Source: Mycoavidus cysteinexigens (GTDB lineage: Bacteria > Pseudomonadota > Gammaproteobacteria > Burkholderiales > Burkholderiaceae). From it: a stretch of DNA of 64,000 nucleotides. This document shows, piece by piece, positions 9,743-60,766 of this stretch. The position numbers and the translations under genes are program-made. The notes under the pieces are model-generated. The model made no database searches and was not told where the DNA came from. It was given only the letters and a program-made list of their open reading frames with translations. The first letter of the stretch is position 1. Each line of letters begins with the position of its first letter. The stretch is from the NCBI GenBank assembly GCA_031963205.1, contig JASSUB010000007.1:808-64807 (forward strand), given 5' to 3'.

Positions 9743-11416
9743 ATGCCTCACAATCCACGCTCACGGCATATCACGCAAGGTATCGAGCGCGCGCCAAACC
9801 GGTCGATGTATTACGCGCTTGGCTATCAAAAAGAAGATTTCGATAAACCGATGATTGGTGTAGCCAACGGCCATTCTACGATCACGCCTTGTAATGCCGG
9901 CTTGCAACCTCTAGCAGATGCGGCCGTTAAGGCGATTCAAGCGGCCAGCGCCAATGCGCAAATTTTTGGCACACCGACTATTTCCGATGGCATGTCGATG
10001 GGCACCGAAGGCATGAAATATTCGTTGGTCTCGCGCGAAGTGATTGCCGACTGTATTGAAACGGCGGTGCAAGGCCAATGGATGGATGGCGTGGTGGTGA
10101 TTGGCGGCTGTGATAAAAATATGCCAGGCGGGATGATTGCACTGGCGCGGATCAATGTTCCCGGGATTTATGTCTATGGCGGCACGATCAAGCCGGGCCA
10201 TTGGCATGGTCAAGATTTAACTATCGTTTCGTCGTTTGAAGCGGTGGGTGAATTTATGGCTGGCCGCATCAACCAAGAAGATTTTGAGGGGATTGAGCGT
10301 CATGCTTGTCCCAGCACCGGCTCATGTGGCGGGATGTTTACCGCCAATACCATGAGTTCATCCTTTGAGGCCTTAGGCATGTCACTGCTGTACTCCTCAA
10401 CCATGGCTAACCCAGATCGAGAAAAAGCAGAGTCCGCCGCGGCCTCGGCACGCGTCTTGGTTGAAGCCGTCAAACGCGATTTAAAGCCGCGCGACATTAT
10501 CACCAAAAAATCGATCGAAAATGCCGTCTCTGTGGTCATGGCAACGGGTGGCTCAAGCAACGCTGTCCTGCATTACTTGGCGATTGCCGATGCCGCCGAA
10601 ATTGACTGGAGCATAGATGATTTTGAGCGTATCCGTCAGCGCGTGCCGGTGATTTGTAATCTCAAACCGTCTGGCCAGTATGTGGCAACCGATTTGCATC
10701 AAGCCGGCGGCATTCCGCAAGTCATGAAGATTTTATTAAACGCGGGCTTATTGCATGGCGATTGCATCACCATTACCGGCGCGACACTCGCTGAAGAATT
10801 GGCCGCTGTACCGGATACGCCTCGCGCCGACCAAAAGGTGATCTTCCCGCTTGAACAAGCCTTATATCAGAAAGGTCATCTGGCGATCTTAAAAGGCAAT
10901 TTAGCGCCAGATGGCGCTGTCGCGAAAATCAGCGGCCTCAAAAATCCTGTGATCACGGGCCCGGCTCGGGTGTTTGATGACGAACAAAGCGCGTTGGCGG
11001 CAATCCTGGCCGACCGTATTCAAGCGGGCGATATCCTGGTGTTACGCTATCTTGGTCCGCAAGGAGGTCCCGGTATGCCGGAAATGCTCAGCCCCACTTC
11101 TGCCCTCATCGGCAAAGGCTTAGGTGAGTCAGTCGGCTTAATCACTGATGGCCGTTTTTCTGGGGCGACCTGGGGCCTGGTGGTTGGACATGTGGCGCCT
11201 GAAGCATTTGTGGGCGGTGTGATCGGCCTCGTCCAAGAAGGCGACTCAATTACCATCGATGCCCATCAGTTACTGTTGCAACTCAATCTTGATGAGGCTG
11301 AACTGCAGCGCCGGCGGGCTGAGTGGCAACCACCCGCACCGCGCTATACGCGCGGCGTACTGGCAAAATACGCGGCCCTCGCACTCCCCGCCAATCGAGG
11401 CGCTGCCACGGGCTAA
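9743..11416 (+). CDS. ilvD: Dihydroxy-acid dehydratase
   Basis: [41 protein letters not shown]. Confidence 0.96.
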
Positions 11417-14584: not shown

Positions 14585-15778
14585 ATGTCTGCTCCGTCAA
14601 TGCCCACTGCTCTGTTGGTGTATGAAAGTTATTTCGCGCGCCAGATATATTTGGCGTTCGGCTTTGTGCTATTTGCGTTTTCTGGGCTCTTCTTCTTTTT
14701 TGATCTGATTAGCGAATTAAACTCGATTGGGCAGCACAATTACAAGTTTGGTTATGCTGTGATACGCGTAGCCTTACTCACCCCATCTCGCTTGTACGAG
14801 ATTATTCCCGTAGCGGCACTGATTAGCGCGATTTTTGTCTTTGCCACCATGGCCGCCAATTCGGAATTCACGATCTTTCGCATTTGCGGCCTCTCAACCC
14901 GGCGCGCACTCGGCTCCCTCATGAAAATCGGCCTGCCACTGGTCACCGCCACATTTTTATTTGGTGAAGTGATCAGCCCTTATGCAGACCAATTATCCGA
15001 GCGTGTACGGCTCGAGGCATTGGGCGCCTCCGTCTCATCGAATTTTAAGTCTGGAGTCTGGGTCAAAGATACGCTCAACAATGACGGTGAAGGTCGTCCA
15101 GTCATGCGCTTTGTGAATGTTGGCAAATTGATGCCAGATACCACGATTCGCGATGTACGGATTTATGAATTCGACCATCAATTCCAGTTAACCGATGTGC
15201 GCGTTGCCGAGCGTGGGCAGTTTATCGCGCCAGATCATTGGCAACTCACCGAGGTAACAGCAACTCACTTATTTAAAGCTGCAACGTTGCCGCCCCCAAG
15301 CACTGCTCCCAATGAAACAGTAGACCTGCTACAACCACTGTACCACGCTCAGCAAGCGGCTCTGCCGGAATATTTAATGCGCTCGCAGTTGACCCCACAA
15401 ATTCTGTCTGTGCTGCTGGTGTCCCCCGACCGGATGTCAATGCTGGATTTATTTTCATATATTCGCCACCTACAAGAAAATCACCAAGATACGCAGCGTT
15501 ATGAAATTGCCTTATGGCGCAAATTTTTCTACCCATTCACCGTCTGGGTCATGCTTGCGCTCTCCTTACCCTTTGCTTATTTGCATACCCGTGCTGGCGT
15601 GGTCGGCATTAAAGTATTTGGCGGCATCATGCTAGGCATGAGTTTTCAACTCATCAATACACTGTTCTCGCATATTGGCATCCTGAATACCTGGCCAGCG
15701 GCGCTGACCGCGGCCACGCCTAGCCTGATTTATATTGCGTTTGGCTTAATCGCATTACGTTGGGTTGACCGGCACTAA
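14585..15778 (+). CDS. lptG: LPS export permease LptG
   Basis: ANSEFTIFR, YEIALWRK, GGIMLG; follows lptF. Confidence 0.94.
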   Translation: MSAPSMPTALLVYESYFARQIYLAFGFVLFAFSGLFFFFDLISELNSIGQHNYKFGYAVIRVALLTPSRLYEIIPVAALISAIFVFATMAANSEFTIFRICGLSTRRALGSLMKIGLPLVTATFLFGEVISPYADQLSERVRLEALGASVSSNFKSGVWVKDTLNNDGEGRPVMRFVNVGKLMPDTTIRDVRIYEFDHQFQLTDVRVAERGQFIAPDHWQLTEVTATHLFKAATLPPPSTAPNETVDLLQPLYHAQQAALPEYLMRSQLTPQILSVLLVSPDRMSMLDLFSYIRHLQENHQDTQRYEIALWRKFFYPFTVWVMLALSLPFAYLHTRAGVVGIKVFGGIMLGMSFQLINTLFSHIGILNTWPAALTAATPSLIYIAFGLIALRWVDRH

Positions 15779-15852
15779 ACACCCCCCGTACTCTGTAACT
15801 TTGAGCGCTAAATGACACGAATTACTAGCGTTATGCGGCACCAATCACGAGG

Positions 15853-15978
15853 ATGGAACAAGCGGCGTCTACCACATCGTCGGTGACAAATCTCACAGAA
15901 CTGTTTTCAATCTCCAGGACGACTGTCTACCAGACCTTCAACCAACAGGCGGGCGAAGCTTTAGAGAAGGTGACATGA
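15853..15978 (+). pseudogene. Relic C-terminal HTH of a serine resolvase/invertase
   Basis: Hand translation MEQAASTTSSVTNLTELFSISRTTVYQTF... resembles the resolvase recognition helix 'ISDLAELFSVSRPTVYRT'; no catalytic domain upstream. Confidence 0.45.
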
Positions 15979-16140
15979 GTATTTGGGGAATTCCTCTGCT
16001 GTTTTCTTTCTGGACGTTCTACACATCACGCGGCGTGACCCAGGGTGTCAAATAGCGCTGATAATTCGTGCCATTTAGCGATCGTTACACCATACGCAAA
16101 AAAGCTCAACTTTAAAGAGCGCCTCAGAGCACTCGCCATT

Positions 16141-16178
16141 TATGCCAAAATTGCGTACACTATATCCATAATGGCATA
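16141..16178 (+). promoter_or_regulatory. Candidate TA promoter/operator inverted repeat
   Basis: TATGCCA (16141-16147) and TGGCATA (16172-16178) bracket TACACT and CATAAT -10-like hexamers; AAGGAG RBS before ATG 16192. Confidence 0.5.
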
Positions 16179-16191
16179 GAAGGAGTGCATC

Positions 16192-16635
16192 ATGAAACCT
16201 GTGGCAGCGAATATTTCGACTGGGACTTTACTAGGCGGCGTCGCGGTGCTGAGCCAATTGCCTGGTTCAGCGCTAGAATGGGTGCAGATAATTCGGCGGG
16301 GGATTTCATCCGGTGCGGTCGATTCAATGCTGAAATCCATCGGTCTGTCACAAGCAGAACTTGCCTCCGCCCTGGCTATTCCAGAGCGTACCCTGGCTCG
16401 ACGCAAACGAGAAGGCATCCTGAGCAGCGAAGAGTCAGCCAAACTCCTGAGACTCGCGCGCATCGTCGTGCGCGCCACCCAGGTTTTTGAAGATCTAAAG
16501 ATTGCGACCCATTGGCTCAAATCTCCGGCCCCCGCTTTGGGCGGTATGACTCCGCTGAGTCTGGTCGACACCGATATCGGTGCTGACAGTGTATTAGACA
16601 CCTTAGGCCGGATTGAGCAAGGGGTATTTTTCTAA
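16192..16635 (+). CDS. Xre/MbcA/ParS-family antitoxin (DUF2384)
   Basis: HTH segment LAIPERTLARRK, LSSEESAKLLRLARI, C-terminal WLKSPAPALGGMTPLSL...LGRIEQGVF. Confidence 0.92.
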   Translation: MKPVAANISTGTLLGGVAVLSQLPGSALEWVQIIRRGISSGAVDSMLKSIGLSQAELASALAIPERTLARRKREGILSSEESAKLLRLARIVVRATQVFEDLKIATHWLKSPAPALGGMTPLSLVDTDIGADSVLDTLGRIEQGVFF

Positions 16636-16658
16636 CCGCCTATGGCCATTATCTAGAT

Positions 16659-17600
16659 ATGAACCTTCATCAGCTTCGCTTTGTGCGCGAAGCAGTTCGG
16701 CAGAATTATAATTTAACCGAAGCGGCTAAGGCGCTGGCGACATCGCAACCCGGCGTGTCAAAAGCAATCATCGAACTTGAAGATGAGTTGGGGGTCGATA
16801 TCTTCAGGCGGCACGGCAAGCGAGTACGCTCACTCACCGAGCCTGGGCGCGCCATTTTAATTTCGGTCGAAACCATCCTACAAGAAATCGATAATATTAA
16901 ACGTATCGGCAAAGAATATACTGAGCAAGACCAAGGCAAGCTCGTGATTGCAGCGGTGCAAGCACACCTCCGCTACACGCTGCCCCCGATTGTTACAGAA
17001 TTCAAGAAAAAATTTCCCAGAGTTCTTTTGTCCATTTTGCCAGGCACTCCCAGTCAAGTGGCAGAGATGGTAGAGAGTGAACAAGCCGATCTTGGACTGA
17101 TCGCTGAAGCCGTGACCGGCCACCAAGAACTCAATTTATTGCCCTCTTTGCCATGGCATTATGTCGCGCTCATGCCTAGCCATCATCCGCTGACGGCGCA
17201 TGAGCGCTTAACGCTCGCAGAACTGGCCAACTATCCGTTAATCATCTACGACACGGCCGGCGCGGGTCACGCTAAGCTTATGCAGACATTTGCCTTACAG
17301 TCATTAACGCCAGAAATTTTGCTCAGAGCCATCGACGCAGACACCATTAAAACCTACGTCGAACTGGGTTTAGGCGTAGGCATCATGCCCAATATAACCT
17401 TGGACACTCCGCCCAGCGGTAGCTTGCGCGCACTCCCCTTAGAGCATGTATTTGGCACCCATCTGACGCAGATCGTTCTCAAACAAGGCACGTATCTACG
17501 CCGCTATATGAATGCTTTGATTGAGCTGCTGTCCCCTAGTTTGAACCGCAAAGAAATTGAGCAAACGCTGCATGAGGGGTATGCCATTGACTCACCTTGA
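16659..17600 (+). CDS. cysB: CysB-family LysR regulator with divergent effector domain
   Basis: MNLHQLRFVREAVRQNYNLTEAAKALATSQPGVSKAIIELEDELGVDIF is typical of Burkholderia CysB; DADVIKTYV-like DADTIKTYVELGLGVGI; position downstream of lptG. Confidence 0.85.
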   Translation: MNLHQLRFVREAVRQNYNLTEAAKALATSQPGVSKAIIELEDELGVDIFRRHGKRVRSLTEPGRAILISVETILQEIDNIKRIGKEYTEQDQGKLVIAAVQAHLRYTLPPIVTEFKKKFPRVLLSILPGTPSQVAEMVESEQADLGLIAEAVTGHQELNLLPSLPWHYVALMPSHHPLTAHERLTLAELANYPLIIYDTAGAGHAKLMQTFALQSLTPEILLRAIDADTIKTYVELGLGVGIMPNITLDTPPSGSLRALPLEHVFGTHLTQIVLKQGTYLRRYMNALIELLSPSLNRKEIEQTLHEGYAIDSP

Positions 17601-17640
17601 GTCGGTCTGCACCTCACCCTGGGCATGGAGGGCTTAATTT

Positions 17641-18105
17641 ATGCCCACAGTTTGGCGGATTGTGACTGAACCACACACCGCTACGGCTTTTTCCGGTGAA
17701 GGCGCGCGTTTATACGGCGGACGCTGGAATCCCAAAGGCCTGGCCGTGATTTACACCGCGCAGAGTCAGTCACTCGCGGCGCTAGAAATGCTGGCTCAAG
17801 ATATACCGCTACGCGCTCGCTATGTGATCATTCCAGCCAAAGTCCCCAAACAGCTCATTGAACACTACAATTTACAACAGCTCCCCCCTAACTGGCGAGA
17901 CCCCGCTGTGCGCAGTACGCTGCAAATGATTGGCGCCACCTGGGTTAAAATAGGACGCAGTGCAGTACTTGCCGTTCCCAGTGTGATTATCCCAACCGAA
18001 TTGAATTACGTACTCAACCCACACCATCCTGATTTTGTTAAGATCGAGTTTGGTCAAGCGGCCCCATTTACACTCGATACGCGACTTTTACGCCACCTTG
18101 GGTAA
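17641..18105 (+). CDS. RES-domain toxin (ParT/MbcT family)
   Basis: FSGEGARLYGGRWNPKG (R), SLAALE (E), LAVPSVIIPTELNYVLNP (S): all three RES residues are present. Confidence 0.92.
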   Translation: MPTVWRIVTEPHTATAFSGEGARLYGGRWNPKGLAVIYTAQSQSLAALEMLAQDIPLRARYVIIPAKVPKQLIEHYNLQQLPPNWRDPAVRSTLQMIGATWVKIGRSAVLAVPSVIIPTELNYVLNPHHPDFVKIEFGQAAPFTLDTRLLRHLG

Positions 18106-18126
18106 TCAAAACGATATCGTTTGATT
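18104..18126. terminator. Hairpin between convergent RES and DUF4400 genes
   Basis: Near-palindrome AATCAAAACGAT/ATCGTTTGATT; AT-rich, so a weak stem. Confidence 0.35.
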
Positions 18127-18128
18127 GC

Positions 18129-18794
18129 TTAACAATATTTCTTATAATACTTAGCCATGGTCCATACCAGCAAGGCGCAAAAGCTCACGACAGGTAAAAA
18201 CAAAATCTCAAACGGGAGTTTGACTGGCGCCACCAACCACCCAATTGCCGCCAGTGGCAACAAGCCAAATTTTAGCCAACGCTTCGCCCGATGATAACGA
18301 GTGGCTGACTCATGGCCGCCGTTTTCTCGGCGAATCACTCGCGCGACCAAGCCATCGATCAGAGCCACGCCGATAATCAGGCCAAACTTAGGCGCCACCA
18401 GGATCAGCAACGCAAGCCGTACACCGAATAACTGCAGAGCATACATGGCAATCAAAATAGGCTCGCGCAAATTGCTCAAGGATAAATTTCGATACTCTGC
18501 CACCGGCGACTGTATCGCAAGTTCAATCCTATTCCAGCCAAACCAACACCAATAAGCCCAGCCAGCAGCGTGTTGAGCTAACTCTAAATTGGTACACTGC
18601 GCTAAATAATAGTGCAGCAAAGCCTGCATCGCCGCAATCGAGTCCGCGCGCCAACTGTAGTACCCTGCAAGCCAACAAGCCAACACCGCGAGCACTGAAA
18701 TAACGACGATCCACAGCAGCAGATTAAGGGTTGCTCGCAGCACCCAAAAAAACTCTCGTAGGCTCTCGTCATCCGCTTGAGATTTAGAGCGCAT
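18129..18794 (-). CDS. ICE membrane protein, DUF4400/PFL_4697-like
   Basis: N-terminal TM, LFGVRLALLIL, ALIDGLVARVIRRENGGHESATRYHRAK (cf. DGLVRRDLRRFGAGRES); sits downstream of traD as in PFGI-1 ICEs. Confidence 0.85.
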   Translation of the reverse strand: MRSKSQADDESLREFFWVLRATLNLLLWIVVISVLAVLACWLAGYYSWRADSIAAMQALLHYYLAQCTNLELAQHAAGWAYWCWFGWNRIELAIQSPVAEYRNLSLSNLREPILIAMYALQLFGVRLALLILVAPKFGLIIGVALIDGLVARVIRRENGGHESATRYHRAKRWLKFGLLPLAAIGWLVAPVKLPFEILFLPVVSFCALLVWTMAKYYKKYC

Positions 18795-20757
18795 CACGTG
18801 GTCCTGAGGTGCGCTCACGCAGCGCCTCAAACACTGCTTCTAAAACCCACTGCTGGCTCGCCTGGTCATGTTCTTCCGTGACCAAAGGTAAACGCAATTT
18901 AACCAATTGCCCGCCATCGATTAAAGCAAATGCCTGCCCTTTGGGCAATTGCGTTAAATCTGCTGGCTGCAGCATCGGGACCTCGCGGGCAGTCCAGGTG
19001 TCTTGGGTGGCGGCGGAGAAATCTGCAAATTCTCCCGGCTCATCCATGTCACGCGTACTCGAGCCGGTACTGCGCGACCAGATTTCAACGGTAGGCAACT
19101 GCTCAATCAAAATAGCTGCTGTGCTAGGATTTTTTACCCGCAGCATGATTAACGTGTTGAAGTTGCCAAACATCTGTTGGGCTTTTGCTCTAGAACCGAT
19201 TTTTGCTTCAAGATCTGCATCCGTTTGAGTTAATGCGGTGACACGTAGGCCAGTCCCTCCCGCCTTGTTAAGCAGCGGAATAAATTCATCGCCGCACAGT
19301 TCATTAAATTCATCGGCATATAGACTCACATCACGCCGCCTACCAGAGCGGGTTTGGCCAAAGCCCGTGCCGTATTTATACATACGCCCGGCGGTGGAGG
19401 TAAGATCCGCAAACATGGCATTGCCCACTGCTGCTGCGACTTCAAAGTCAGACAGCGCATCTAAACCAATATACACAATCTCGCCTTGGTCAATCACCTG
19501 CGGCCAATCAAAAATGGCGCGCGGATCATGCGGGTTATCGTATTGGGGAGAAAGAAGCTCAGAAATTTTACCTGTGGTGAGTTTTTCTAGAAGCGGATAT
19601 AACGACGAAACCAATTTTTCAAAGTAACTGCGATCATTGGCTAATATGGATGAGAGCGCATCGGCAATTGGATCATGCCAGCCCTGCTCTTTAATCAGCG
19701 CAAGCATTTGCAATGCAGATAATGCACGGCCCGTTTTACGAGCCTGTTCTTGTAGCGATTTACCCGGCTCTTTGATTTTTTCTCGCCAAACCGGGTGCGC
19801 CTGATTCAGCCAAAATTCAAAATACTGAATACATAAATCGTCGATATTAACCGCGTGCTGATAGACTAACTCATAGGTCGGTTTCATGCCCAATGCGGAT
19901 AGTGCGCGCGCCATAACATTCACAAAACGCCAGACAAATTCCTTGAACACCGCACTTTGGCCTGCGCTTGGCAGTTGGTTGCTCACCCGCGTGGCAACCT
20001 CGGTAACCCTTGAAAAAGTGCTGATCGGGCTATAGCGTGCAGAAGACTCTGGATACCCTAAATGAAACACGTAAAATAGATCTTCGCGCTGGGCTCGTTT
20101 AGCTTCAGTGTACATCCGCAACAGTAAATCCACGTCACCTTTAGGATCGAAGACAATCACCACATCGCCACGTCGAATATCCTGGCTGACCTGAATCTCC
20201 ACATAGCGAGTTTTACCCACTCTGGTGGTACCGAGCACTAAGGTATGGCCGACCCGCTCACGCAGATCCGTATAAATGTCGCGCTCATGCACTTCGACAC
20301 CATGTAGCGCTGGTTCACCACCGGCTGGCGGCAAACGCGAAACGACAGGTCGCAGGCCCCCTATGCGTATGAACTTGCTCAACCAAGCACTAAAATACTG
20401 ACGCTCATCACCCGCACATAAATGCCGGTTTTGGGGCAATCTAGCCCAATACAGCCGCTGTGTATGCTCTGCTGTCCAGCGAAAACCTCGTCCAAGAAAT
20501 TGTTCTTGAGTGGAAACTGGAATATCTCGTGCCTCTATTTCATAACTTGGCAAGCGTCTTAAGTTGCGTTGAAAGCGAATAATACAGCTTGCCTGATAAG
20601 CTCTAATGAATGCTAACAACAGCATGCTCAGCGTAAAAATTAAACCTAATCTCGGCGTCACTAGAAATGTTTTATGCCAAAACCACATGCTGCCGCAAGC
20701 AATCAGTGCTGAGATAGAGGAAACCAACTCGACCGGTTTACGGAACAGATTGTTCAT
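18784..20757 (-). CDS. traD: Type IV coupling protein TraD (PFGI-1/SXT class)
   Basis: FLGRGFRWTAEHTQRL, Walker A GHTLVLGTTRVGKT, VFDPKGD, YYDRITSSL-like YFEKLVSSL, Walker B ADEFNEL..DEFIPLLNKAGG. Confidence 0.93.
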   Translation of the reverse strand: MNNLFRKPVELVSSISALIACGSMWFWHKTFLVTPRLGLIFTLSMLLLAFIRAYQASCIIRFQRNLRRLPSYEIEARDIPVSTQEQFLGRGFRWTAEHTQRLYWARLPQNRHLCAGDERQYFSAWLSKFIRIGGLRPVVSRLPPAGGEPALHGVEVHERDIYTDLRERVGHTLVLGTTRVGKTRYVEIQVSQDIRRGDVVIVFDPKGDVDLLLRMYTEAKRAQREDLFYVFHLGYPESSARYSPISTFSRVTEVATRVSNQLPSAGQSAVFKEFVWRFVNVMARALSALGMKPTYELVYQHAVNIDDLCIQYFEFWLNQAHPVWREKIKEPGKSLQEQARKTGRALSALQMLALIKEQGWHDPIADALSSILANDRSYFEKLVSSLYPLLEKLTTGKISELLSPQYDNPHDPRAIFDWPQVIDQGEIVYIGLDALSDFEVAAAVGNAMFADLTSTAGRMYKYGTGFGQTRSGRRRDVSLYADEFNELCGDEFIPLLNKAGGTGLRVTALTQTDADLEAKIGSRAKAQQMFGNFNTLIMLRVKNPSTAAILIEQLPTVEIWSRSTGSSTRDMDEPGEFADFSAATQDTWTAREVPMLQPADLTQLPKGQAFALIDGGQLVKLRLPLVTEEHDQASQQWVLEAVFEALRERTSGPRDAL

Positions 20758-20788
20758 ACAGGGCTTCGTGCAAACGCTACGTTAAGGC

Positions 20789-21814
20789 CTAGTCCGCCTG
20801 CGGGCGGCTAGGCCATAAGCTCAGAGCACTATCCTGCGCCTCAAGGTAGGCAGGAAAAGCCAGCTGCGTTTCGGTTGAGGCTTCGGTTGAGGCTTCGGTT
20901 GAGGCTTCGGTTGAGGCTTCGGTTAAGGCTTCGGTTGCAGATGAATTGGATACTCCCTCAGACACAGGCGTCACTAATCCAGTCTTGGCCCTAGCTGCTT
21001 GGCCAGCACGCGCCGCGATGCGGGCCATGGGGTTACTTTGAGATTCACGACTCAACGCGTCGAACAACTCATTCAGCACCGGCGGATGTTCACCTAACCA
21101 AGCTAACACTGGCCGCGGAATGAACCATTGTAGAAAAATCAAGGCTAACTGGCCCGTTTGACGATAATCTAAGCACTGCGATGACGGATCAGGCTGAACC
21201 GGCTCGAAGGTATACCACGCACCGCCTTGCTCGCGCATCGTGCCGCCGAGCACGATCCAGGGCCTGCGTTGGCCCCCTTGGGCATCGCAGATCTCCACCC
21301 CCAAAGCCGCCAAGCCTTGCGCCACTCCTTGTAGCACAGCCATCGCCAGCACCGCATAGCTGTAACGGGCAGCTAAGCGCGCTTGCTCTTCAGCACCGCC
21401 ACCCACTGGCAGGGCATAGGCATTTCGATAATGCAACGCATCTCGAGCAAGCGACATGATATGCATAAACAAACTACGGTTCTGGCTCGGCTGGGCGGTT
21501 AGCGTAGTGGGCAATAATTGCACAAATTCACCGCAGCACTGTAACAACGGCTCAACGTCGCGGCTGAAATTTTCTGGCGTAAAAGCCAGGTGCTGACGAA
21601 GCCTATCCAATACGTGGCGTGCGCCGGTACGCTCGATTAATTCCTCATATGGCAGTATCGGCAGATGACGTGTGCTTGGTGCTTGGGTGGTTGCGCTAGC
21701 CATCACCGGTAAGCGGCGCCTTAAAGGCTCACCATAACGCACCCCACAAACAGCCAGCCCGCACCCCACGGCCAGCCCGTATAACCAATCATGTTCAAAC
21801 CAAGCGAGCAGCAT
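20789..21814 (-). CDS. TraI_2/MOBH relaxase-like protein, catalytically degenerate and C-terminally truncated
   Basis: Fold landmarks FVQLLP, ALHYRNAYALPVGGGAEEQARLAARYSYAVL and WIVLGG...Y match MOBH. PASExHHH is replaced by PTTLTAQP and HDxGK by QGVAQ. N-terminal hydrophobic segment; upstream of traD. Confidence 0.75.
   Translation of the reverse strand: MLLAWFEHDWLYGLAVGCGLAVCGVRYGEPLRRRLPVMASATTQAPSTRHLPILPYEELIERTGARHVLDRLRQHLAFTPENFSRDVEPLLQCCGEFVQLLPTTLTAQPSQNRSLFMHIMSLARDALHYRNAYALPVGGGAEEQARLAARYSYAVLAMAVLQGVAQGLAALGVEICDAQGGQRRPWIVLGGTMREQGGAWYTFEPVQPDPSSQCLDYRQTGQLALIFLQWFIPRPVLAWLGEHPPVLNELFDALSRESQSNPMARIAARAGQAARAKTGLVTPVSEGVSNSSATEALTEASTEASTEASTEASTETQLAFPAYLEAQDSALSLWPSRPQAD
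20870..20937. repeat. 12-bp tandem repeat TTCGGTTGAGGC (4 perfect, 1 with one mismatch, 1 partial) encoding EAST repeats
   Basis: Read directly; translates on the minus strand as TEALTEASTEASTEASTEASTE in the relaxase-like tail. Confidence 0.95.
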
Positions 21815-45034: not shown

Positions 45035-46105
45035 CTATGGCAACAACTGAATCATCTCCGGATTCACAGATACCGCTTCTGCCACCAGCGGCACCGCCTC
45101 AAGCAAACGGTATTCCGCTTCGCTTAAATTGAGATGACGCTTAGTATGGCGAGGTTGTTTCAGGCCCATAAAAATATCTTTAGGGACCGCACCAAATAGT
45201 TTTTTGATGGTATTCACACGTGCTTGCGCCAACGCCTGAGCGGTTGGCAAAAAATCAAGCCGCGTCAGCTGAATCAGAGCGTCCTGGGTTAAATATTTTT
45301 GCCAATACACTGCGCGCTCAAAGATGCTACGACATTTATGCTTGACTGCTTGTAAAGCTTGATGGCCTTCCTGCGATGAAATCAAATCCCGATACTGCGC
45401 AGATTTGACAATCCGAGCATAACTGTCGACTTCAACCAACAGTAACGCAATCATAAAACCGTATGGAGAAGCAAAACCAAGGCGAACCTTAGCAGGCTCC
45501 CGAGCTTGTAGAATTGAATAAGAAAGTCCTTTTTGTTTCAATTCGTCAAGTTTGCCTAGCATGCGCTTTTGTTGTGCGTTAATAAGCTTACGCACTTCGG
45601 CAATACGGTTCGAAATTTCAATCAAAGCCCAGTCAGCATAAGGATTATCATTACCGGATAACGACCAAAGGGCGCGCAACGCAGCGGCCACGCGCTTGCC
45701 TCCGGCGCTCGGCGAGCCTGATTCTCCAGGCCGAATTGCCAAACCGAGGAAAAGCCGCATCGCATGCACCGTATGCAACTCCATCGTATCTTCCACTTGA
45801 GTAGCCAGCTGCCCCAACGTTTTAATTTTGCGCGCATCGCTGATGGGTACAAGTGCGTCTGCACTTTGCCGCGCAGCATACGTTGCCTGCATGTGTTTCA
45901 GGCTTTGTTCGCGCTCACAATAAAGCTCATAACGGGCAAAAAATGGATCGGCCGGATCAGGCGCATTTGATTGCAGCAAGTGCCACACAATTTTACGCTC
46001 GGCCGCCAGATCATAATGGTCTGGAAAAGGCGAATCCGCCGAAGTCGCAAATGCATTAAGAGCCGAGTTCCACCGCCTGGGCCGTGATGGTGCTTTAGTG
46101 ACCAT
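45035..46105 (-). CDS. PFL_4669-family ICE protein (InrR/AcaB-like regulator)
   Basis: MELHTVHAMRLF, GNDNPYADWALIE, GFASPYGF, FGAVPKDIFMG..PRH. Confidence 0.82.
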   Translation of the reverse strand: MVTKAPSRPRRWNSALNAFATSADSPFPDHYDLAAERKIVWHLLQSNAPDPADPFFARYELYCEREQSLKHMQATYAARQSADALVPISDARKIKTLGQLATQVEDTMELHTVHAMRLFLGLAIRPGESGSPSAGGKRVAAALRALWSLSGNDNPYADWALIEISNRIAEVRKLINAQQKRMLGKLDELKQKGLSYSILQAREPAKVRLGFASPYGFMIALLLVEVDSYARIVKSAQYRDLISSQEGHQALQAVKHKCRSIFERAVYWQKYLTQDALIQLTRLDFLPTAQALAQARVNTIKKLFGAVPKDIFMGLKQPRHTKRHLNLSEAEYRLLEAVPLVAEAVSVNPEMIQLLP

Positions 46106-46328
46106 CACGATACTCCGTACGCGCCTGATGAACCGCTAAACAGTGCCCTCTCCATTGAAGCAACTCAACCATTAGCAGCCCATGCCACACAACACTCCTA
46201 AGATAATAGGCAAACCACACAAGATAGAAAAAATACAGTTCATCCGAACGCATCCAAAAACGATTAAATTGCCGCTCAAAGTCGCCCATTTCGCTCAGTA
46301 ATATATCTGTACGAGGTTTCCAGCTCAT
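46095..46328 (-). CDS. Small hypothetical membrane protein
   Basis: ATG overlaps the upstream TGA (TGATG) and its 3' end overlaps the PFL_4669 start; hydrophobic core YFFYLVWFAYYL..VVWHGLLMV. Confidence 0.5.
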   Translation of the reverse strand: MSWKPRTDILLSEMGDFERQFNRFWMRSDELYFFYLVWFAYYLRSVVWHGLLMVELLQWRGHCLAVHQARTEYRDGH

Positions 46329-51755: not shown

Positions 51756-52260
51756 TTAGCAAACGGCCCCTCTCTGTACGCCGTAGAAAGCAGTAATGAT
51801 AATAGAAAACCTAAAACGCTTGCGGCAAATACGCGCCGTTGCTAAAACTTAGTCAATCTAAAAATAGCCTTATCCCACCTGCCTTTGAGAAAGATATCAA
51901 ATACTTTTCAACGTAGTTATGCACAATATCTGTGGATATCTTTGGGCTACTTTGCCTTTTATAATGACAACTTTTATGTTCCCCAAGGGAGTATTGAACG
52001 CTTTAATGAATGGATGCTAGATCAACCCAATGTGTAACTACTTTGATTTTAATTTCGATCGATGTGGATCACTGCCAAACTACTGGCGCAGTTCAGCGAT
52101 TGATGCTAACTTACTCGTCTATTCGTTTAATTTAGGCGTTTCCTTGCCACACCTTCGATCTGTAGCCAGAATCGATCAACTAGCAACGCGCTAGTCATCT
52201 TTTGGCGCGGGCGTTGCGTAGGCCGCCTACTCTTGTTGACTTAAAGTTCAGTGAATTTTT

Positions 52261-53037
52261 ATGCAAGAAAAAAAGCTTAGCACCACCACGAGATTCAGTA
52301 ACACTGTCGAGCATTACGCGAAATATCGCCCTACTTACCCGGTGGCGGTGATTGAGCTTCTCAAAAAAGAAGGACAGCTTAAAGCTAGCGCGGTAGTCGC
52401 AGATATTGGCTCAGGCACCGGTATATTCGCAAAATTGCTGCTTGATCATCAATATAAAGTATTAGGTATTGAACCTAATGCACAGATGAGAGAAAAAGCA
52501 GAGCAGCAATTGGCTGATTATACAAACTTTATGAGCGTCAATGCCACTGCTGAAGCGACCGGTTTGAGTAACCATAGCGTGGATAGCATTACCGTCGCGA
52601 CAGCATTTCATTGGTTCGACAAAGAGAACGTCAAGCAGGAATTTAACCGCATTCTTAAGCCAGGCGGCTTGTGCATGCTGATATGGAATGTACGGCTGCT
52701 TGAAGCATCGCCGTTGATGGCGCAATATGAAGAGCTCTTAAATCAGTATGGCGCTGACTATAAAGAGGTCAATGCTAACAAAGTAGATGAAGAGAAAATT
52801 CAACAATTTTTTACACCGATAAGCGTTAATCTTGCTGCATTTCCTCATCAACAAAGATTGGATAAGAATGGTTTTTTAGGACGCATATTGTCTACCTCTT
52901 ACACACCAAAATCAGGGCAACCCAATTATGAAGCCATGATGCAAGCGGCGAGCCATCTTTTTGAGGCACATCAAAAAGATGGTTGGGTTGAATTTATTTA
53001 CAGCACGAAATGCTATTACGGACATTGCGGAAAATAA
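52261..53037 (+). CDS. Class I SAM-dependent methyltransferase
   Basis: YAKYRPTYP, VADIGSGTG, ATAFHWFD, LKPGG. Confidence 0.9.
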   Translation: MQEKKLSTTTRFSNTVEHYAKYRPTYPVAVIELLKKEGQLKASAVVADIGSGTGIFAKLLLDHQYKVLGIEPNAQMREKAEQQLADYTNFMSVNATAEATGLSNHSVDSITVATAFHWFDKENVKQEFNRILKPGGLCMLIWNVRLLEASPLMAQYEELLNQYGADYKEVNANKVDEEKIQQFFTPISVNLAAFPHQQRLDKNGFLGRILSTSYTPKSGQPNYEAMMQAASHLFEAHQKDGWVEFIYSTKCYYGHCGK

Positions 53038-53255
53038 GACTGATGAAAAGTAGCGCCGCCACCTTGATGGTCTGTATGGCAGCCAAACATCCCATGCTAA
53101 AGCATGACACTCGTGCCTACGCACCATACAATCTCAATCTTCGCTGCGACTCGCCAATTTCGGTAAATCACAAAGGAGCGTAAAACAGCAGAATCCCTTC
53201 TCCCGTAGCTAGTGAGGAAAGAAAAATAGGCTGCATCGCCATTTAAATAAAAATG

Positions 53256-53619
53256 TCACGAAATTATGCCTAATAAAAGAATGGCAACAGTAATAATCAG
53301 TGCTCCCCCCAGGCGAGTTGCTATTTGCGCAAACGGCATCAGTTGCAAGCGGCGCGCAGAAGTGAGTATCGCAACATCGCCAATGCCGCCCATCCCACTG
53401 TGGCAGGCATTAATGATTGCACTTTCGATCGGATATAAACTTACCCATTTGCCCACAAAAAAACCTACCCTAGTCAGGGTAAAAACCGTGACCGCAATAG
53501 TCACGATATTAGCCAAGGTAAAAGCAGCCATTAGGTCGCTCCACGAAGTGGTAGTGATACCAATAGCAAAAAGCAAGGGATAGGTCACTGCTGTCGAGAA
53601 AAAATGATAAACCGTACGA
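53256..53619 (-). pseudogene. 3' fragment of a second 2-HCT symporter, decapitated at the MITE
   Basis: RTVYHFFSTAVTYPLLFAIG...HSGMGGIGDVAIL...ATRLGG; similarity to the other copies begins exactly at the MITE terminus (53619). Confidence 0.9.
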
Positions 53620-53831
53620 GGGGTTCTAATCCCAAACCGGCCGAATTTATCCAACGCTCCAAATGAGTTATTTATTACCAATTATTTACAATCAATCGTC
53701 CAATTGATTGTTGACGATTACATCAAGATCAATGCACCCGGTTAATTCTTGATGGCGTGCTAAGTCACAGCGGATAAAAATTGCTAAAATAGTAATTTAG
53801 ATAAATTCCGCCGGTTTGGGATTAGAACCCC
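53620..53831. mobile_element. Tn3-family-type miniature inverted-repeat element (212 bp)
   Basis: Terminal IRs GGGGTTCTAATCCCAAACCGG(C/G)..GAATTTATC, 32 bp with one mismatch, starting with GGGG; internal palindromes ACAATCAA..TTGATTGT and CATCAAGA..TCTTGATG; flanks TACGA/TTAGT do not form a TSD. Confidence 0.88.
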
Positions 53832-53934
53832 TTAGTATAGGAGAACCAAATCGATAACCGATTATGGCCTGCTACAATTAAGTTTCTGTTGATATGGTTG
53901 AATAACCTGTAGCCCATCATGTTAGGAGAATTTT

Positions 53935-54636
53935 ATGAATATAGGTGCCATTAGTCAGTATAGGCCTGTGAGAGCAGCTAGCTTACCTTTATTTAAGAAT
54001 AGGTATGAGGCAGGCAGACAGTTAGCCAATGTATTACTTCGGTTACGCTTGCAACAACCGATTGTGTTAGCACTGCCGCGGGGTGGGGTGCCACTCGGCT
54101 TTGAAGTCGCACAGTCTCTTCATGCACCACTCGATATTCTGTTGGTTAGAAAGATTGGGGTGCCTGAAATGCCTGAGGTAGCACTCGGCGCTGTCGTCGA
54201 TGGCAGCGCTCATCAAACGATATGGGATACAAGCTTAGTTAACGATCTAAGGCTTAAAACGACTGAGTTGGAAACGCTAAAGCAGCAGCAATTAGAAGAG
54301 ATCGAACGCCGCCGTCACCTATACCGAGGCAGCAAACCGCTGCCCACGTTGAACGGGAAAACCGCAATTGTGGTTGACGATGGCATAGCCACTGGCAGTA
54401 CGATGAAAGCGGCTTTGCTTGCCTTAGCTAAGACTGAAATAGCAGCGCTTGTCGTAGCCACGCCGGTAGCACCGCCAGACGTATGGGAGAGTATTATGCC
54501 TCTTGTCGATCAGGGTGTTTGTCTCTACTGTCCCGAGCCGTTTGGCTCGGTTGGTCAGTGTTACGACCATTTTGAGCAATTGGAAGATCAAGAAGTGATC
54601 GACTTGTTGAGACGCGCCGATTTATCTACAAGTTAG
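53935..54636 (+). CDS. Putative phosphoribosyltransferase (type I PRT)
   Basis: FKNRYEAGRQLA, LALPRGGVP, PRPP motif IVVDDGIATGST, F.SVGQ.YDHFEQ. Confidence 0.88.
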   Translation: MNIGAISQYRPVRAASLPLFKNRYEAGRQLANVLLRLRLQQPIVLALPRGGVPLGFEVAQSLHAPLDILLVRKIGVPEMPEVALGAVVDGSAHQTIWDTSLVNDLRLKTTELETLKQQQLEEIERRRHLYRGSKPLPTLNGKTAIVVDDGIATGSTMKAALLALAKTEIAALVVATPVAPPDVWESIMPLVDQGVCLYCPEPFGSVGQCYDHFEQLEDQEVIDLLRRADLSTS

Positions 54637-54745
54637 TCGAAAAACGTAGCCTTTAGTTAGGCCTTTCTCAACGTCTTTCTGCCAATGCGTGGCAACTAGT
54701 TTTTGCAAAGCGTCCTTAACAAGGGGCTTGGTAAAAGTTGTTAGG

Positions 54746-54885
54746 TGTAGCGACCCGATTACATCCTAACTCTCGCCCGATAACATAGGTTGTTTTGGAG
54801 TCGAATTAATTGAGAATATCCGCTTGCTCTAGCTCGTATTAAATGATAATGGGCCCGCATTTTTTGCAAACAGCCCGATTACATC
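54746..54885 (+). mobile_element. Tn552/Tn5053/Tn7-superfamily transposon end
   Basis: Starts 5'-TGT; repeated sites CCCGATTACATC (54754), CCCGATAACATA (54776, 22-bp period) and CCCGATTACATC (54874); adjacent to a transposon ATPase relic. Confidence 0.7.
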
Positions 54886-55453
54886 GGCCAGGAATCACAT
54901 TCGTTAAGAGCACGCCGGCGGCCAGCAGGCGATTGTGCAATTCTTGGGTACGCTCGGGCGGCAATTTTGACAGTCTCCCCTTTCCATCACGAACAATTTC
55001 CATCAAGCGCTTCAAACTGATCAGTGTCTTCGAATGCAGTTGATGCGCATCGTCGATGAACAGGGCAACTGGCTTTTTGCGCTTACGGATCAGCATACGT
55101 AGCGCGCGTTCGCGCTTCTCGGTTTGGGTCGGCATTGGATCATCTTTTGCGGCCACTAGGTCGCAAAAGAGCGCGAGGATGAGCGTGCCGAGCGAAATCT
55201 CCCCACCGTCGACCGACAATGCCTTGGCAATCAAGATCTCTTTACCCTCTTCCAAAGCTTCCTGAATTTTCCGCAGCGTAGTGGTTTTTCCGGTGCCAAC
55301 GATCCCAGAGAGGACAATCAGCTTACCGTCTTTGATCGCGAGCTTCAGTTCCTTAACAATATGCTGGGACTGGGCCGTCTCGAAATATGTCGATTGGCCA
55401 GTTAGTGCAATTTCGCGCGTCAACCCGAAGAAGCCTCGAATATCACTCAGCAT
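54839..55453 (-). pseudogene. Transposon AAA+ ATPase (ExeA/TniB-like) with in-frame internal deletion
   Basis: Walker A GIVGTGKTT and Walker B LFIDDAH intact; after DGKGRLS the sequence jumps to a family-like C-terminus (PERTQELHNRLLAAGV); the last ~20 codons of an upstream transposase-like ORF (QVRAYVESALEDPSDAE*) overlap its ATG. Confidence 0.72.
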
Positions 55454-55669
55454 CAGATGGATCCTCCAATGCAGACTCGACGTATGCGCGAACCTGTGCC
55501 ACACTGCGTTAACCCAGAAAGTGACTTTGTTAGAAACCACGCTTACAGGTGTGAATGCAAAGGCTGACGAAACCATTAAACTATTGAATAAACTTCTTGA
55601 AATGAAAGCCTTAGTTTAATATTTTTTATTGCCTATTAATACATACCTATCGCGACTCCATAAGAGAAT

Positions 55670-55697
55670 GCCCTTTTTATCAGAGAGGGCTTTTTTT
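55670..55697 (+). terminator. Terminator-like hairpin
   Basis: GCCCTTTTT-ATC-AGAGAGGGC (with G.U pairs) followed by T7. Confidence 0.5.
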
Positions 55698-55908
55698 ATG
55701 GAATTAGGATTTATAGTACCCAAACCAGCATTATTTGCAACTCATGTTCAAGTTTTATGCTGCCTCATCGTGCAAAAAGTAGCAGATTATTTTATAAATA
55801 ACCTATCCGAGAACATCATCTGTAACAAAAGTTCGGCTCTAAGATTGCTCTATTTTTAGGACTATTCTTATAAAAAAGACTACCTAGGGTACGGTGGCGG
55901 GGGCCACA

Positions 55909-56511
55909 CTATTCTTCTAGACGTTCCTTCAATAGCCTCGTACCGCTCGCCACCTCCCACTTAAGCTGAAGTTCTTTATTACGTTGAGCAATCTCTTTCC
56001 TACGATCAATAAGAGGCTCATCCTCATCCTCTTCATCCCTATTTACTGTAAATGGAATGTTAATCTTTTTAGCTTGATCCTGAATTTCTTCAGTTGATTT
56101 ACTAAGTCCATTGAGATGTTTTAAGTAAACTATCTCATTTTCAGGATTTACCCATATGGATTCATCTATTTCATTCTTTAACTGATCTGCATCATTTAAA
56201 GTTTGATTTATAATATTTCTCCTATTTTCTCTATCCATGTCACGATGAAGTAGGATTATCAATCTTTTTTGCAAAAGTATAATTCTACTTGCAAAGTCAC
56301 CTATAGGTTCTGGAAGTGATCTTTTCAAGTCCATTGCAATTTTTCCTAACGAGTCCTGCTCACCTACCACCGCATCCCAGGAATCAATCGTTACTTTTTC
56401 CATGTCAGTAGCTATCTCTGAGAAGGATTTTGCAGGCGTACCGACATTATCACCACCACAGCCCATCAAAGTAGACATTAAAAAAATCATTGAAAATAAA
56501 ATGAGGCGCAT
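55909..56511 (-). CDS. Orphan AT-rich helical lipoprotein
   Basis: MRLILFSMIFLMSTLMG|C lipobox; charged helical body; no family recognised. Confidence 0.75.
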   Translation of the reverse strand: MRLILFSMIFLMSTLMGCGGDNVGTPAKSFSEIATDMEKVTIDSWDAVVGEQDSLGKIAMDLKRSLPEPIGDFASRIILLQKRLIILLHRDMDRENRRNIINQTLNDADQLKNEIDESIWVNPENEIVYLKHLNGLSKSTEEIQDQAKKINIPFTVNRDEEDEDEPLIDRRKEIAQRNKELQLKWEVASGTRLLKERLEE

Positions 56512-56679
56512 AGCTATTTAAATAAAAATTATAAAGTGTTTATTTCTATATCGTTTAAAATGAATCATAGCCAATATGAAGTGATTATTTCATTTTCCAA
56601 GATGACCATAAATTTATGCTAGGAGATGGGGGTAGAAAAATCAAGGAATTGGAGCATAGACAAGCAGGCCTCTCAGGCT

Positions 56680-57980
56680 CTACGAAAGCAGCTCAAGCAA
56701 GAGAATAGCGGCAGTAATAGTGATTGCTCCCCCTAGGCGAGTGGCTATTTGCGCAAACGGCATCAGTTCTAGGCGGTGGGCGGAAGTCAGAATCGCAATA
56801 TCACCAACACCGCCCATGCCACTGTGACAAGTATTAATAAGTGCGCTTTCAATTGGATATAAACCTATCCATTTCCCCACAAAAAAGCCAACTGTAGTAA
56901 GCGTAATGACCGTTACCACGATTGTAACGATGTTGGCTAAGTTGAAAGCGGCCATTAAATCAGCCCAAGAAGTGGTCGTTATCCCAATGGCAAATAACAA
57001 AGGATACGTCATCGCTTTAGAGAACAAATTATAAATAGTGCGAGCGCCATTTTCTAATGTGGGTGAGATCGTATAAATAAGTTTGACGAGCACAACAAGA
57101 AATAGCATGGCGACAGGCGCGGGTAAGCCAATCAGCTTATGGGCGATGATGCCTACGATATAGAAAGCAATCGCCGCCATCCCCGCGGCTGCAATATGCT
57201 CGACTTTGGCCGATGAGGTATTGATAAGATCTGCTGGCACACTCTTTTCAGCGTCGTATAAACGCCCTTGTCCATTATATCGCGCATAACGCTTACCCAA
57301 TTGATTAAGCAGGCTTGCACAGATAATCGCCACCAAATTCCCCAGCACGATAGCCGGTACGACTTGGGCGAATATTTGGTCTTGCGGAATATTCAAAATC
57401 TCGCCATAAGCAAGAGTGAGAGGAATAGCACCTTCACCAATGCCGCCCGCCATAATAGGGATAACGATATAAAAAAATGTGTAGTGCGCACTTAGCCCAA
57501 AAGCCATACCCGTAAGTGTTCCAGCTATCGCCGCGATAATAGAACCCGCGCCAACGGGGATAAAATCTTAACAATGCCAGCAATAAGGGCGTGGCGGTCC
57601 ATACTCAGGATGCTGCCAACGATCACACAGGCCGTAAACAAATAGACAAACTTGGTTGAGTGCCAAAAATCGCTAACTGACCCGACTAATTCGGCTGGTA
57701 ACAGTTTGTAATGCACTAGATAGGCTGGAAGGAAGATGCTCACGATAACCGGCCCGCCTATTTGCCTTAATCCTGGAATCCGCGCTCCTATTTCGGCACA
57801 GGTACAGCCACATGCGGCAAGTAGCGCAATCATGATTGAGATGTCGCCGGAAACCTTTTCTAAAGCTACAAGGGTTCCTAGGCAAGCAAGGATAACGAAA
57901 TATGCTGGCAGCGGAATAATGCCGATGCGCCTGTGCATCAAATTTTGCAATCGATTACAAATAAATGCGAGATAAAACAT
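56680..57980 (-). pseudogene. Third 2-HCT symporter split by a single-base frameshift
   Basis: ORFs 57525-57980 and 56680-57507 together cover the full protein; AAGATTTTATCC has one T fewer than the ATT TTT ATC (IFI) of the intact copy. Confidence 0.9.
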
Positions 57981-58580
57981 ACCTATTTTATGTTTCCGTC
58001 GAAAATCTCGCCATTTTTATACGTAAAGACACTGCTATTCACTGATGGGTTATTCATCTTTCTGCATCTCCTAGATATATACTGTTTATCTCGCATTCAC
58101 CATAAAAAATGAGCACTCATAGTTTTTAAATCACTATTGACTATAAGGGAACACCCCAAAATAGCAACAATATTTTTCTGACGTTTTTTAGGCGAAGCGA
58201 GAACTGTTCAAATCATGTTTTATGGGCAATAAATTTTATTCCCAATAAATTGATCGAGGTACTATTATGAGTAGCAGAGAACATCTATAACAATAACAAT
58301 AACCATCTTTATTACTGATGATTTTGTAAAGAGTGAGGGCTATGTTTATCCGTGCGTTATGGATAATTTAAGTTCGTGAAATGTTCTAGGAATGTGCTAG
58401 GAATGTGCTATCGAGTGGTTACCGCTACACTACTGTATATTTAACCAGTTATTGATTACCGTTTCTTCACCAGTAAGCTATCTATTGCTAATAAAGCACC
58501 AATAAAATAACGAATAAGCAACGCAGCCTGCTGAAGTTGACCCTATACTTTCCTTAAGTGTGCTTTAAGGATTGGAAACG

Positions 58581-60636: not shown

Positions 60637-60766
60637 CTCAACGCTTAACTTATTTGGGCTGTATTCATGGCCTCTGATGTTCCGCCACGAGCATTGCTCG
60701 TATTTGGTTAAATTACTGACTCAGAACAGCATTCAAACGAATTTGCCAGTTCTGAATGGGGTATTA

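Follow-up and report, generated by a model that had tools for sequence, protein, structure and literature searches.

Why does a chromosomal regulator gene lie between the antitoxin gene and the toxin gene of a toxin-antitoxin (TA) pair, and what does this position mean for the regulator and for the pair? The question is raised by a 64,000-nucleotide (nt) stretch of DNA from Mycoavidus cysteinexigens (contig JASSUB010000007.1 of assembly GCA_031963205.1, positions 808 to 64,807 of the forward strand; the whole stretch is called the window below), in which an Xre-type antitoxin gene (xre), a gene for a CysB-family LysR regulator (cysB) and a RES toxin gene follow each other on the plus strand. 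Bacteria of this genus belong to the Burkholderiaceae and live as endosymbionts in Mortierellaceae fungi. An earlier note on this DNA had described the arrangement from its sequence, and had proposed that cysB may be under TA autoregulation and protected from deletion by addiction, or that CysB may act as a third component of the system. Our analysis favours, with a probability of about 0.7, a vertically inherited ParST-type Xre-RES operon in which the chromosomal cysB has become embedded, the three genes forming one unit that is driven by the antitoxin promoter. The arrangement is best explained as a re-wiring brought about by genome reduction in an endosymbiont, and it shows a known TA family in an unusual layout.

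Layout, transcription and promoter of the locus

The antitoxin gene (16192-16635, plus strand) encodes a protein of 147 amino acids with an Xre-like helix-turn-helix (HTH) and an MbcA/ParS C-terminal toxin-binding domain, in which the Pfam domains PF20432 (residues 29-90) and PF09722 (residues 95-144) are found. It scores 119 bits with the Xre_ParS_antitoxin model NF049845, for which the cut-off is 90, and it matches the solved structure PDB 8GUG_B (E = 5e-15). The toxin gene (17641-18105, plus strand; 154 amino acids) belongs to the ParT-like subfamily, with 156.4 bits for the Res_ParT_toxin model NF049844 (cut-off 110) and 100.5 bits for PF08808 (cut-off 23.2), and its best solved match is ParT (6D0H, E = 6e-24), ahead of the Pseudomonas putida RES protein and MbcT. 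The catalytic residues of ParT were taken from the alignment together with the data on MbcT, in which R47 and Y58 are essential for toxicity (PMC6436930). Residues R28, Y38, E49 and S113 of RES align with R47, Y58, E69 and S126 of MbcT and with the GGRWN...Y...LE...VPS motifs of ParT, and they are also conserved in the toxin of Mycoavidus B1-EB. As judged from these alignments, the catalytic residues of RES and both domains of Xre are intact. The description of the toxin as NAD+-consuming, given in the earlier note, is not established, since the nearest solved relative, ParT, ADP-ribosylates Prs (PMC7758455), and sequence cannot decide between the two activities.

Between these two genes lies cysB (16659-17600, plus strand; 313 amino acids), the orthologue of Burkholderia cysB, whose product passes the CysB-family subfamily model NF009327 (415.5 bits, cut-off 402) and falls below the cut-off of the strict CysB equivalog NF009326 (299.6 bits, cut-off 436); an exact-sequence look-up of the protein matched no record. 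The distance from xre to RES amounts to 1,005 nt, of which cysB takes up 942 nt. The xre-cysB spacer (16636-16658, plus strand) has 23 nt, in which neither a terminator nor a remnant of a RES start was detected, while the cysB-RES spacer (17601-17640, plus strand) has 40 nt and contains the Shine-Dalgarno sequence of RES, GGAGGG, at 17627-17632. An Rfam scan of 15000-19000, with E up to 0.1, gave no match. The open reading frames, the family models and the terminator scan agree with the layout first described, in which Xre and RES are split by cysB on one strand, with gaps of 23 and 40 nt and no terminator. An assembly error at the junctions, a possibility raised together with that description, is ruled out: the same order is present in five further independent Mycoavidus assemblies (L001, L002, L169 and B1-EB, the last in two assemblies from NCBI and one from Logan), a 66.6-kb contig of the DNA run X2 is collinear across the region, and RNA contigs span both junctions.

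These RNA contigs come from five fungal/soil metatranscriptomes, and they are ~96-97% identical to the window in those runs that allowed an estimate. Three runs gave contigs (16178-17025, 16179-16775 and 16178-17005) that pass through xre, over the 23-nt gap and into cysB, and in run X23 one contig (17519-17687) spans the 40-nt gap into RES, where a second one is placed at 17685-17842. The contig depth falls after ~17025, dropping from ~11 to ~4 and then to 0-5 over RES, of which RNA was seen in X23 only. Over 15400-16177 the five runs show no RNA except for a 40-nt piece of a chimeric contig, which indicates that the signal does not stem from contaminating DNA. The 5' boundary of the RNA, at 16178/16179, is 6 nt downstream of the candidate -10 hexamer CATAAT (16167-16172), and the short leader that follows holds the Shine-Dalgarno sequence AAGGAG (16180-16185). 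A consensus scan found no terminator-like site on the plus strand inside the triplet, and the window has no counterpart of the intrinsic terminator that stands after Burkholderia cysB. The most economical reading of these data is a single mRNA with its 5' end at or just upstream of 16178, ~14 nt before xre, and with an abundance that apparently declines from 5' to 3'. On these contigs, cysB is co-transcribed from the promoter ahead of xre, which makes its control by the TA promoter plausible.

The same data bear on the simplest alternative, namely that the three genes merely abut, each with a promoter of its own and with no regulatory consequence. The separate Shine-Dalgarno sequence of RES, a weak promoter-like site within cysB (a consensus match at 16867-16895) and the fall of the contig depth after ~17025 would suit such an arrangement. 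However, unbroken RNA contigs lead from 16178 over the 23-nt gap in three runs and one contig spans the 40-nt gap in a single run, neither spacer has the length needed for a full promoter with an untranslated leader, and no terminator stands between the genes, so that we consider independent transcription of the three genes unlikely.

The promoter/operator region of xre (16136-16183, plus strand) combines an inverted repeat, homology to a family promoter and the 5' boundary of the RNA. The arms of the repeat (16136-16147 and 16172-16183) are 12 nt long and 83% complementary, with the outer half-sites ATGCCA (16142-16147) and TGGCAT (16172-16177), and besides CATAAT there is a second candidate -10 hexamer, TACACT (16156-16161), which is homologous to TAAAAT of the family. 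Canonical relatives share a strongly conserved xre promoter, TGCCATTTTGGTgTAAAATaGATGCCAAATGGCAGGAGG, in which two palindromic boxes ~22 bp apart flank the -10 hexamer, and 69 of 79 loci have a GCCA-N2-4-TGGC palindrome upstream of xre, compared with 2.7% of random 140-nt windows. This layout agrees with what is described for the P. putida Xre4RES2 complex, the transcription-repressing form, which binds two sites ~20 bp apart (PMC12204516). The Mycoavidus promoter, ATGCCAAAATTGCGTACACTATATCCATAATGGCAT, is clearly homologous to that of the family but no longer has strict palindromes, the outer half-sites being all that is kept. Autoregulation in Mycoavidus therefore appears possible but is probably weakened, as the strict palindromes are gone. 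Thus, of the palindromic operator noticed at first, the inverted repeat is present while the strict palindromes of the family are eroded, and the suggestion that cysB has come under TA autoregulation gains from the co-transcription and loses from the state of the operator.

Distribution and inheritance of the gene order

We surveyed RES loci among 185,579 species-representative genomes (GTDB) and mapped the 80 best by tblastn, of which 78 are from organisms other than Mycoavidus; the closest two are metagenome-assembled genomes labelled Mycoavidus cysteinexigens, with 94% identity. In all 78 non-Mycoavidus loci xre immediately precedes RES without an intervening gene, the largest gap being 272 nt, and in 62 of the 78 the stop codon of xre and the start codon of RES share one base (TGATG or TAATG), which bears out the statement that such pairs are normally adjacent or overlapping. 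The adjacency or overlap expected for RES-Xre systems is not seen at the window locus, and among these 80 best loci an intervening gene occurs in Mycoavidus only. From the side of the regulator, no Xre/RES homologue was found in the flanks of 83 CysB-family loci (80 metagenomic and three from Burkholderia), and a metagenome scan with CysB, run as a negative control, returned no Mycoavidus-like locus, its best match being 64% identical. The arrangement is confined to the genus Mycoavidus: the synteny survey of xre-LysR-res triplets that the earlier note had suggested gives none outside it, neither in the 78 RES loci nor in the 83 CysB loci. As a separate observation, many small runs labelled "plant/fungus metagenome" carry 23-29% of the 31-mers of the locus, and window-like Mycoavidus strains appear widespread in public fungal and plant-associated samples.

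The position of cysB on the chromosome is an old one. The order in Burkholderia is lptG-cbiX-cobA-cysN-cysD-cysH-DUF934-cysI, followed by cysB, which is divergent from cysI and lies downstream of lptG, as the earlier note had stated, at a distance of ~6.9 kb. In B1-EB and in the window, where the anchor gene lptG occupies 14585-15778 (plus strand), the order is lptG-xre-cysB-RES, whereas in B2-EB, the more reduced strain, it is lptG, 33 nt and cysB, without xre and RES. The ilvD-holC-pepA-lptF-lptG neighbourhood is conserved at the cysB locus, and the ~7-kb sulfate-assimilation cluster is gone from every Mycoavidus locus looked at, which matches the report that B1-EB lacks cysteine biosynthesis (PMC5877345). 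The ancestral address of cysB, downstream of lptG, has been kept, and the deleted cluster had carried the divergent promoter region of cysB. The window CysB-like protein is 71-73% identical to those of B1-EB and B2-EB, and 62-64% identical to the CysB-family regulators of Trinickia, Caballeronia, Paraburkholderia and Burkholderia, which are its closest matches outside Mycoavidus.

The three Mycoavidus lineages allow the events to be ordered. Flanking core proteins place the window lineage as the outgroup to the sisters B1-EB and B2-EB; LptG identities, for example, are 87% between the window and B1-EB, 87% between the window and B2-EB, and 97% between B1-EB and B2-EB. The three-gene order is thus ancestral to all of them, and B2-EB has lost both TA genes; a tblastn search for remnants of xre or RES in B2-EB, including the 54-amino-acid open reading frame after cysB, gave no match below E = 0.19. 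Between the window and B1-EB, the synonymous divergence (dS) is 0.88-1.44 for the triplet and 0.82-1.00 for flanking core genes, and these similar values of ~1 indicate co-inheritance with the chromosome and not a recent transfer. All three genes are under purifying selection, with ratios of nonsynonymous to synonymous divergence (dN/dS) of 0.08 for xre, 0.17 for cysB and 0.14 for RES in the same comparison. For cysB, the ratio between B1-EB and B2-EB is 0.165, the same as with the TA genes present, so that the constraint on this gene is independent of them. This speaks against the proposal that cysB is protected from deletion by addiction, as B2-EB has lost xre and RES and yet has kept cysB under unchanged selection.

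In B2-EB (L084), cysB is at 10001-10939, 33 nt past the lptG stop, a distance too short for a separate promoter, and it is therefore probably co-transcribed with lptFG. If so, the orphan cysB would have captured a promoter for a second time, independently of the TA promoter.

The lineage data also bear on whether Xre and RES belong together at all. They could be non-cognate orphans, left over from two different pairs or element copies that once flanked cysB, and would then form no working pair today. In line with this, RES abuts a conjugative element while xre abuts lptG, RES and the element are missing together in B2-EB, and several events are needed for the gene order under any model. Against it, the two proteins have the same nearest relatives, the Caballeronia/Paraburkholderia pairs, and their identities to relatives co-vary (Spearman 0.69, 71 loci), as expected if both descend from one cognate pair. 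Both genes are also under purifying selection with similar dS, the spacers hold no remnants, and the 64-kb window contains no second copy of xre or RES and no att-like repeat. We regard a non-cognate origin as improbable.

Effector pocket of CysB, formation of the operon and its flanks

In CysB the pocket for N-acetylserine and sulfate is lined by T100, T102, Q103, T149, E150 and W166, among others (PMC11329422). We compared these positions in the window, B1-EB and B2-EB proteins with those of the 118 closest non-Mycoavidus relatives, in which positions 100, 102, 103, 149 and 150 are invariably T, T, Q, T and E (118 of 118). The window protein has V, A, H, A and E (T100V, T102A, Q103H and T149A), keeping E150 and W166, while B1-EB has A, A, C, T and A, and B2-EB has A, A, C, I and E. 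None of the three Mycoavidus orthologues thus keeps T100, T102 or Q103, and each has a replacement at either T149 or E150. The change is not spread evenly over the protein: the HTH (residues 1-65) is ~90% identical to the family consensus, whereas the effector-binding domain is 46-57% identical, compared with 90-95% in free-living members. Of the 219 columns with a conservation of 97% or more among the relatives, 59-74 are changed in Mycoavidus. Some substitutions of T149 (T149M/P) render the E. coli or Salmonella CysB constitutive (PMC11329422). To judge from these comparisons, Mycoavidus CysB has probably kept its binding to DNA but lost the ability to sense N-acetylserine or sulfate. The proposed link from sulfur status through CysB to the toxin is undercut by the loss of this pocket, and it also does not sit well with the deleted sulfate cluster, with B1-EB being without cysteine biosynthesis (PMC5877345) and with a triplet that is limited to one genus.

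We propose the following account of a ParST-type operon with an embedded cysB. The sulfate-assimilation cluster, including the divergent promoter region of cysB, has been deleted, and the embedding of cysB in the TA operon is older than the split of the window lineage from B1-EB and B2-EB. The expression of cysB would now depend on the xre promoter, and would be subject to any Xre-RES autorepression that survives at the eroded two-box operator. The replacement of a 1-nt translational coupling by ~1 kb of gene would lower the output of RES relative to Xre, giving a "safe", attenuated TA module. CysB itself would be a DNA-binding regulator without its canonical ligand, carried in the operon as a passenger and not as a TA component.

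Several points weigh against this account. The RNA evidence consists of assembled contigs of related strains and not of raw reads of the window strain; the cysB-RES junction is crossed by one low-depth contig, RES RNA being present in one of the five runs; and internal promoters may serve cysB or RES, given the weak match inside cysB. With no strict palindrome left in the operator, autoregulation may be weak or lost. The toxicity of RES and its neutralisation by Xre are predictions from sequence. Finally, no sequence trace explains how the order xre-cysB-RES arose.

Two candidates for this origin found no support. The spacers could have been remnants of a deleted RES 5' end or xre 3' end, but local alignment against shuffled controls yielded no significant match (best uncorrected p of 0.02 in 32 tests), and the spacers are not alignable between the window and B1-EB, so that this idea was rejected. 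For tandem or second copies of an element, with xre and RES at its opposite ends, the window offers neither a second Xre or RES homologue nor an att-like repeat. By inference alone, a local duplication and then the reciprocal loss of redundant copies could have turned xre-RES-cysB or cysB-xre-RES into xre-cysB-RES, a path on which every intermediate would stay viable.

Two further explanations give CysB a more active part. Xre-RES may have been domesticated to control the expression of an orphan CysB that has lost its canonical ligand, in which case the toxin:antitoxin ratio would set, through the Xre4RES2 repressor, how much of a global regulator is made in this obligate endosymbiont of fungi; conversely, CysB may feed back on the xre promoter, which would make a new kind of three-gene circuit. 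We consider this reading improbable. A genuine three-component system, in which CysB co-regulates the operon or modulates the toxin according to sulfur or cysteine status, is very unlikely, for although a compact and co-transcribed operon has been kept over a dS of ~1 with all three genes constrained, and the conservation of the HTH makes DNA binding probable, the triplet occurs in 0 of 78 RES loci and 0 of 83 CysB loci of other organisms, B2-EB retains cysB without the TA genes at the same dN/dS of 0.165, the inducer/sulfate pocket is destroyed (PMC11329422) in an organism without cysteine biosynthesis (PMC5877345), and cysB is simply at its ancestral chromosomal position. The B2-EB comparator, the genus-only distribution and the degraded pocket together disfavour both this explanation and retention by addiction.

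The embedded operon that we favour is a natural example of a TA operon that has captured a resident chromosomal regulator and retained it across a deep split (dS ~1). On this account, a type II pair can tolerate the loss of translational coupling and a spacer of 1 kb, and reductive genome evolution can re-wire promoters, with cysB losing its own control region along with the sulfate-assimilation genes. TA finders that are based on adjacency would score such pairs as "orphan" toxins and antitoxins. The culturable B1-EB and the natural TA-less comparator B2-EB offer a system for studying the effect of spacing on the toxin:antitoxin ratio, as well as the role of an orphan CysB in a cysteine auxotroph.

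Upstream of the operon, an insertion remnant of ~304 nt lies between lptG and the xre promoter (15786-16089) and is found only in the sublineage of the window and L001, the latter with an internal deletion of 102 nt. It contains a resolvase HTH_7-like stretch at ~15880-15945, in frame +3 (E = 0.0027; 18.2 bits, below the gathering score of 23.8), and is probably a decaying mobile-element fragment. In the alignment it is absent from L169 and B1-EB, both of which carry the same triplet and have a lptG-xre gap of 84-109 nt, so that by this comparison the insertion, with its resolvase stretch, arrived after the three-gene order had formed and is not part of the original module. The resolvase relic had been taken earlier as a hint of how the module arrived; as its vehicle it is ruled out by the restriction to one sublineage and the sub-threshold HTH_7 match. 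A 35-nt segment of the insertion (16049-16083) also matches a 2,389-nt contig in DNA run X2 with a depth of 5000, compared with 27 for the chromosome, and may represent a piece of an element or replicon that occurs in that sample at very high copy number.

Downstream, the convergent stop codons of RES and of a DUF4400 gene are separated by 23 nt, which contain a perfect 14-nt palindrome, AAACGATATCGTTT (18109-18122), that may act as a bidirectional transcription stop. Here begins the conjugative element, with a DUF4400/TIGR03747 (DtrJ-like) protein, the coupling protein TraD (755 bits for TIGR03754) and a MobH-family relaxase (18129-21814, minus strand), and it runs on to at least 46108. This further part encodes a VirB-like type IV secretion system, to which two T2SSE ATPases belong, as well as an AcaB-type regulator (45035-46108, minus strand). 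The DUF4400-TraD-MobH block beside RES is missing in B1-EB, and in B2-EB the whole element is absent at the site. Within the relaxase gene, a 12-nt tandem repeat of 5.7 copies (20870-20937) encodes a (TEAS)n tract near the C-terminus. Further on, the region 52000-63000 has a G+C content of 36-47%, compared with ~52% elsewhere in the window, and holds an unrelated second LysR gene (58572-59534); it may be another acquired region.

Relation to known systems

The closest known system is ParST of Sphingobium sp. YBL2 (PDB 6D0H/6D0I), which provides the best match for the toxin, and for which both the Res_ParT and the Xre_ParS models pass. Xre has a C-terminal toxin-binding domain like that of ParS, the C-terminus of which plugs the ParT active site (PMC7758455). 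In contrast to ParS and ParT, which are adjacent, the Mycoavidus antitoxin and toxin have a 942-nt regulator gene between them. The P. putida Xre-RES pair (PDB 6GW6, 9R35) and M. tuberculosis MbcTA (6FKG) share the domain pair, the RES-motif residues and the Tyr, and the two-box promoter of the family suits two-site binding by a 4:2 complex, as in P. putida (PMC12204516). Their similarity is lower, however (E = 3e-10 and 2e-4), and the Mycoavidus locus differs in having an operator without strict palindromes and in the loss of translational coupling.

The regulator aligns over its full length with the CysB of Klebsiella/Salmonella (PDB 1AL3, 4GWO; E = 2e-63), and it shares the lptG synteny with the Burkholderia CysB-family regulator that is divergent from cysI; its identity to the CysB of Burkholderiaceae is 62-64%. 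Unlike either of these, the Mycoavidus protein is under the equivalog cut-off with its pocket residues replaced, its neighbouring regulon genes are deleted, and its gene is expressed from a TA promoter instead of its own.

As to three-gene TA operons, omega-epsilon-zeta, paaR2-paaA2-parE2, HigBA-SecB ("TAC") and HipBST likewise have three cistrons in one operon, a DNA-binding protein included. In those operons the third gene accompanies the pair in different taxa and its role has been demonstrated, whereas the Mycoavidus cysB is a resident chromosomal gene, which forms the triplet in a single genus and, in B2-EB, outlasts the loss of the pair.

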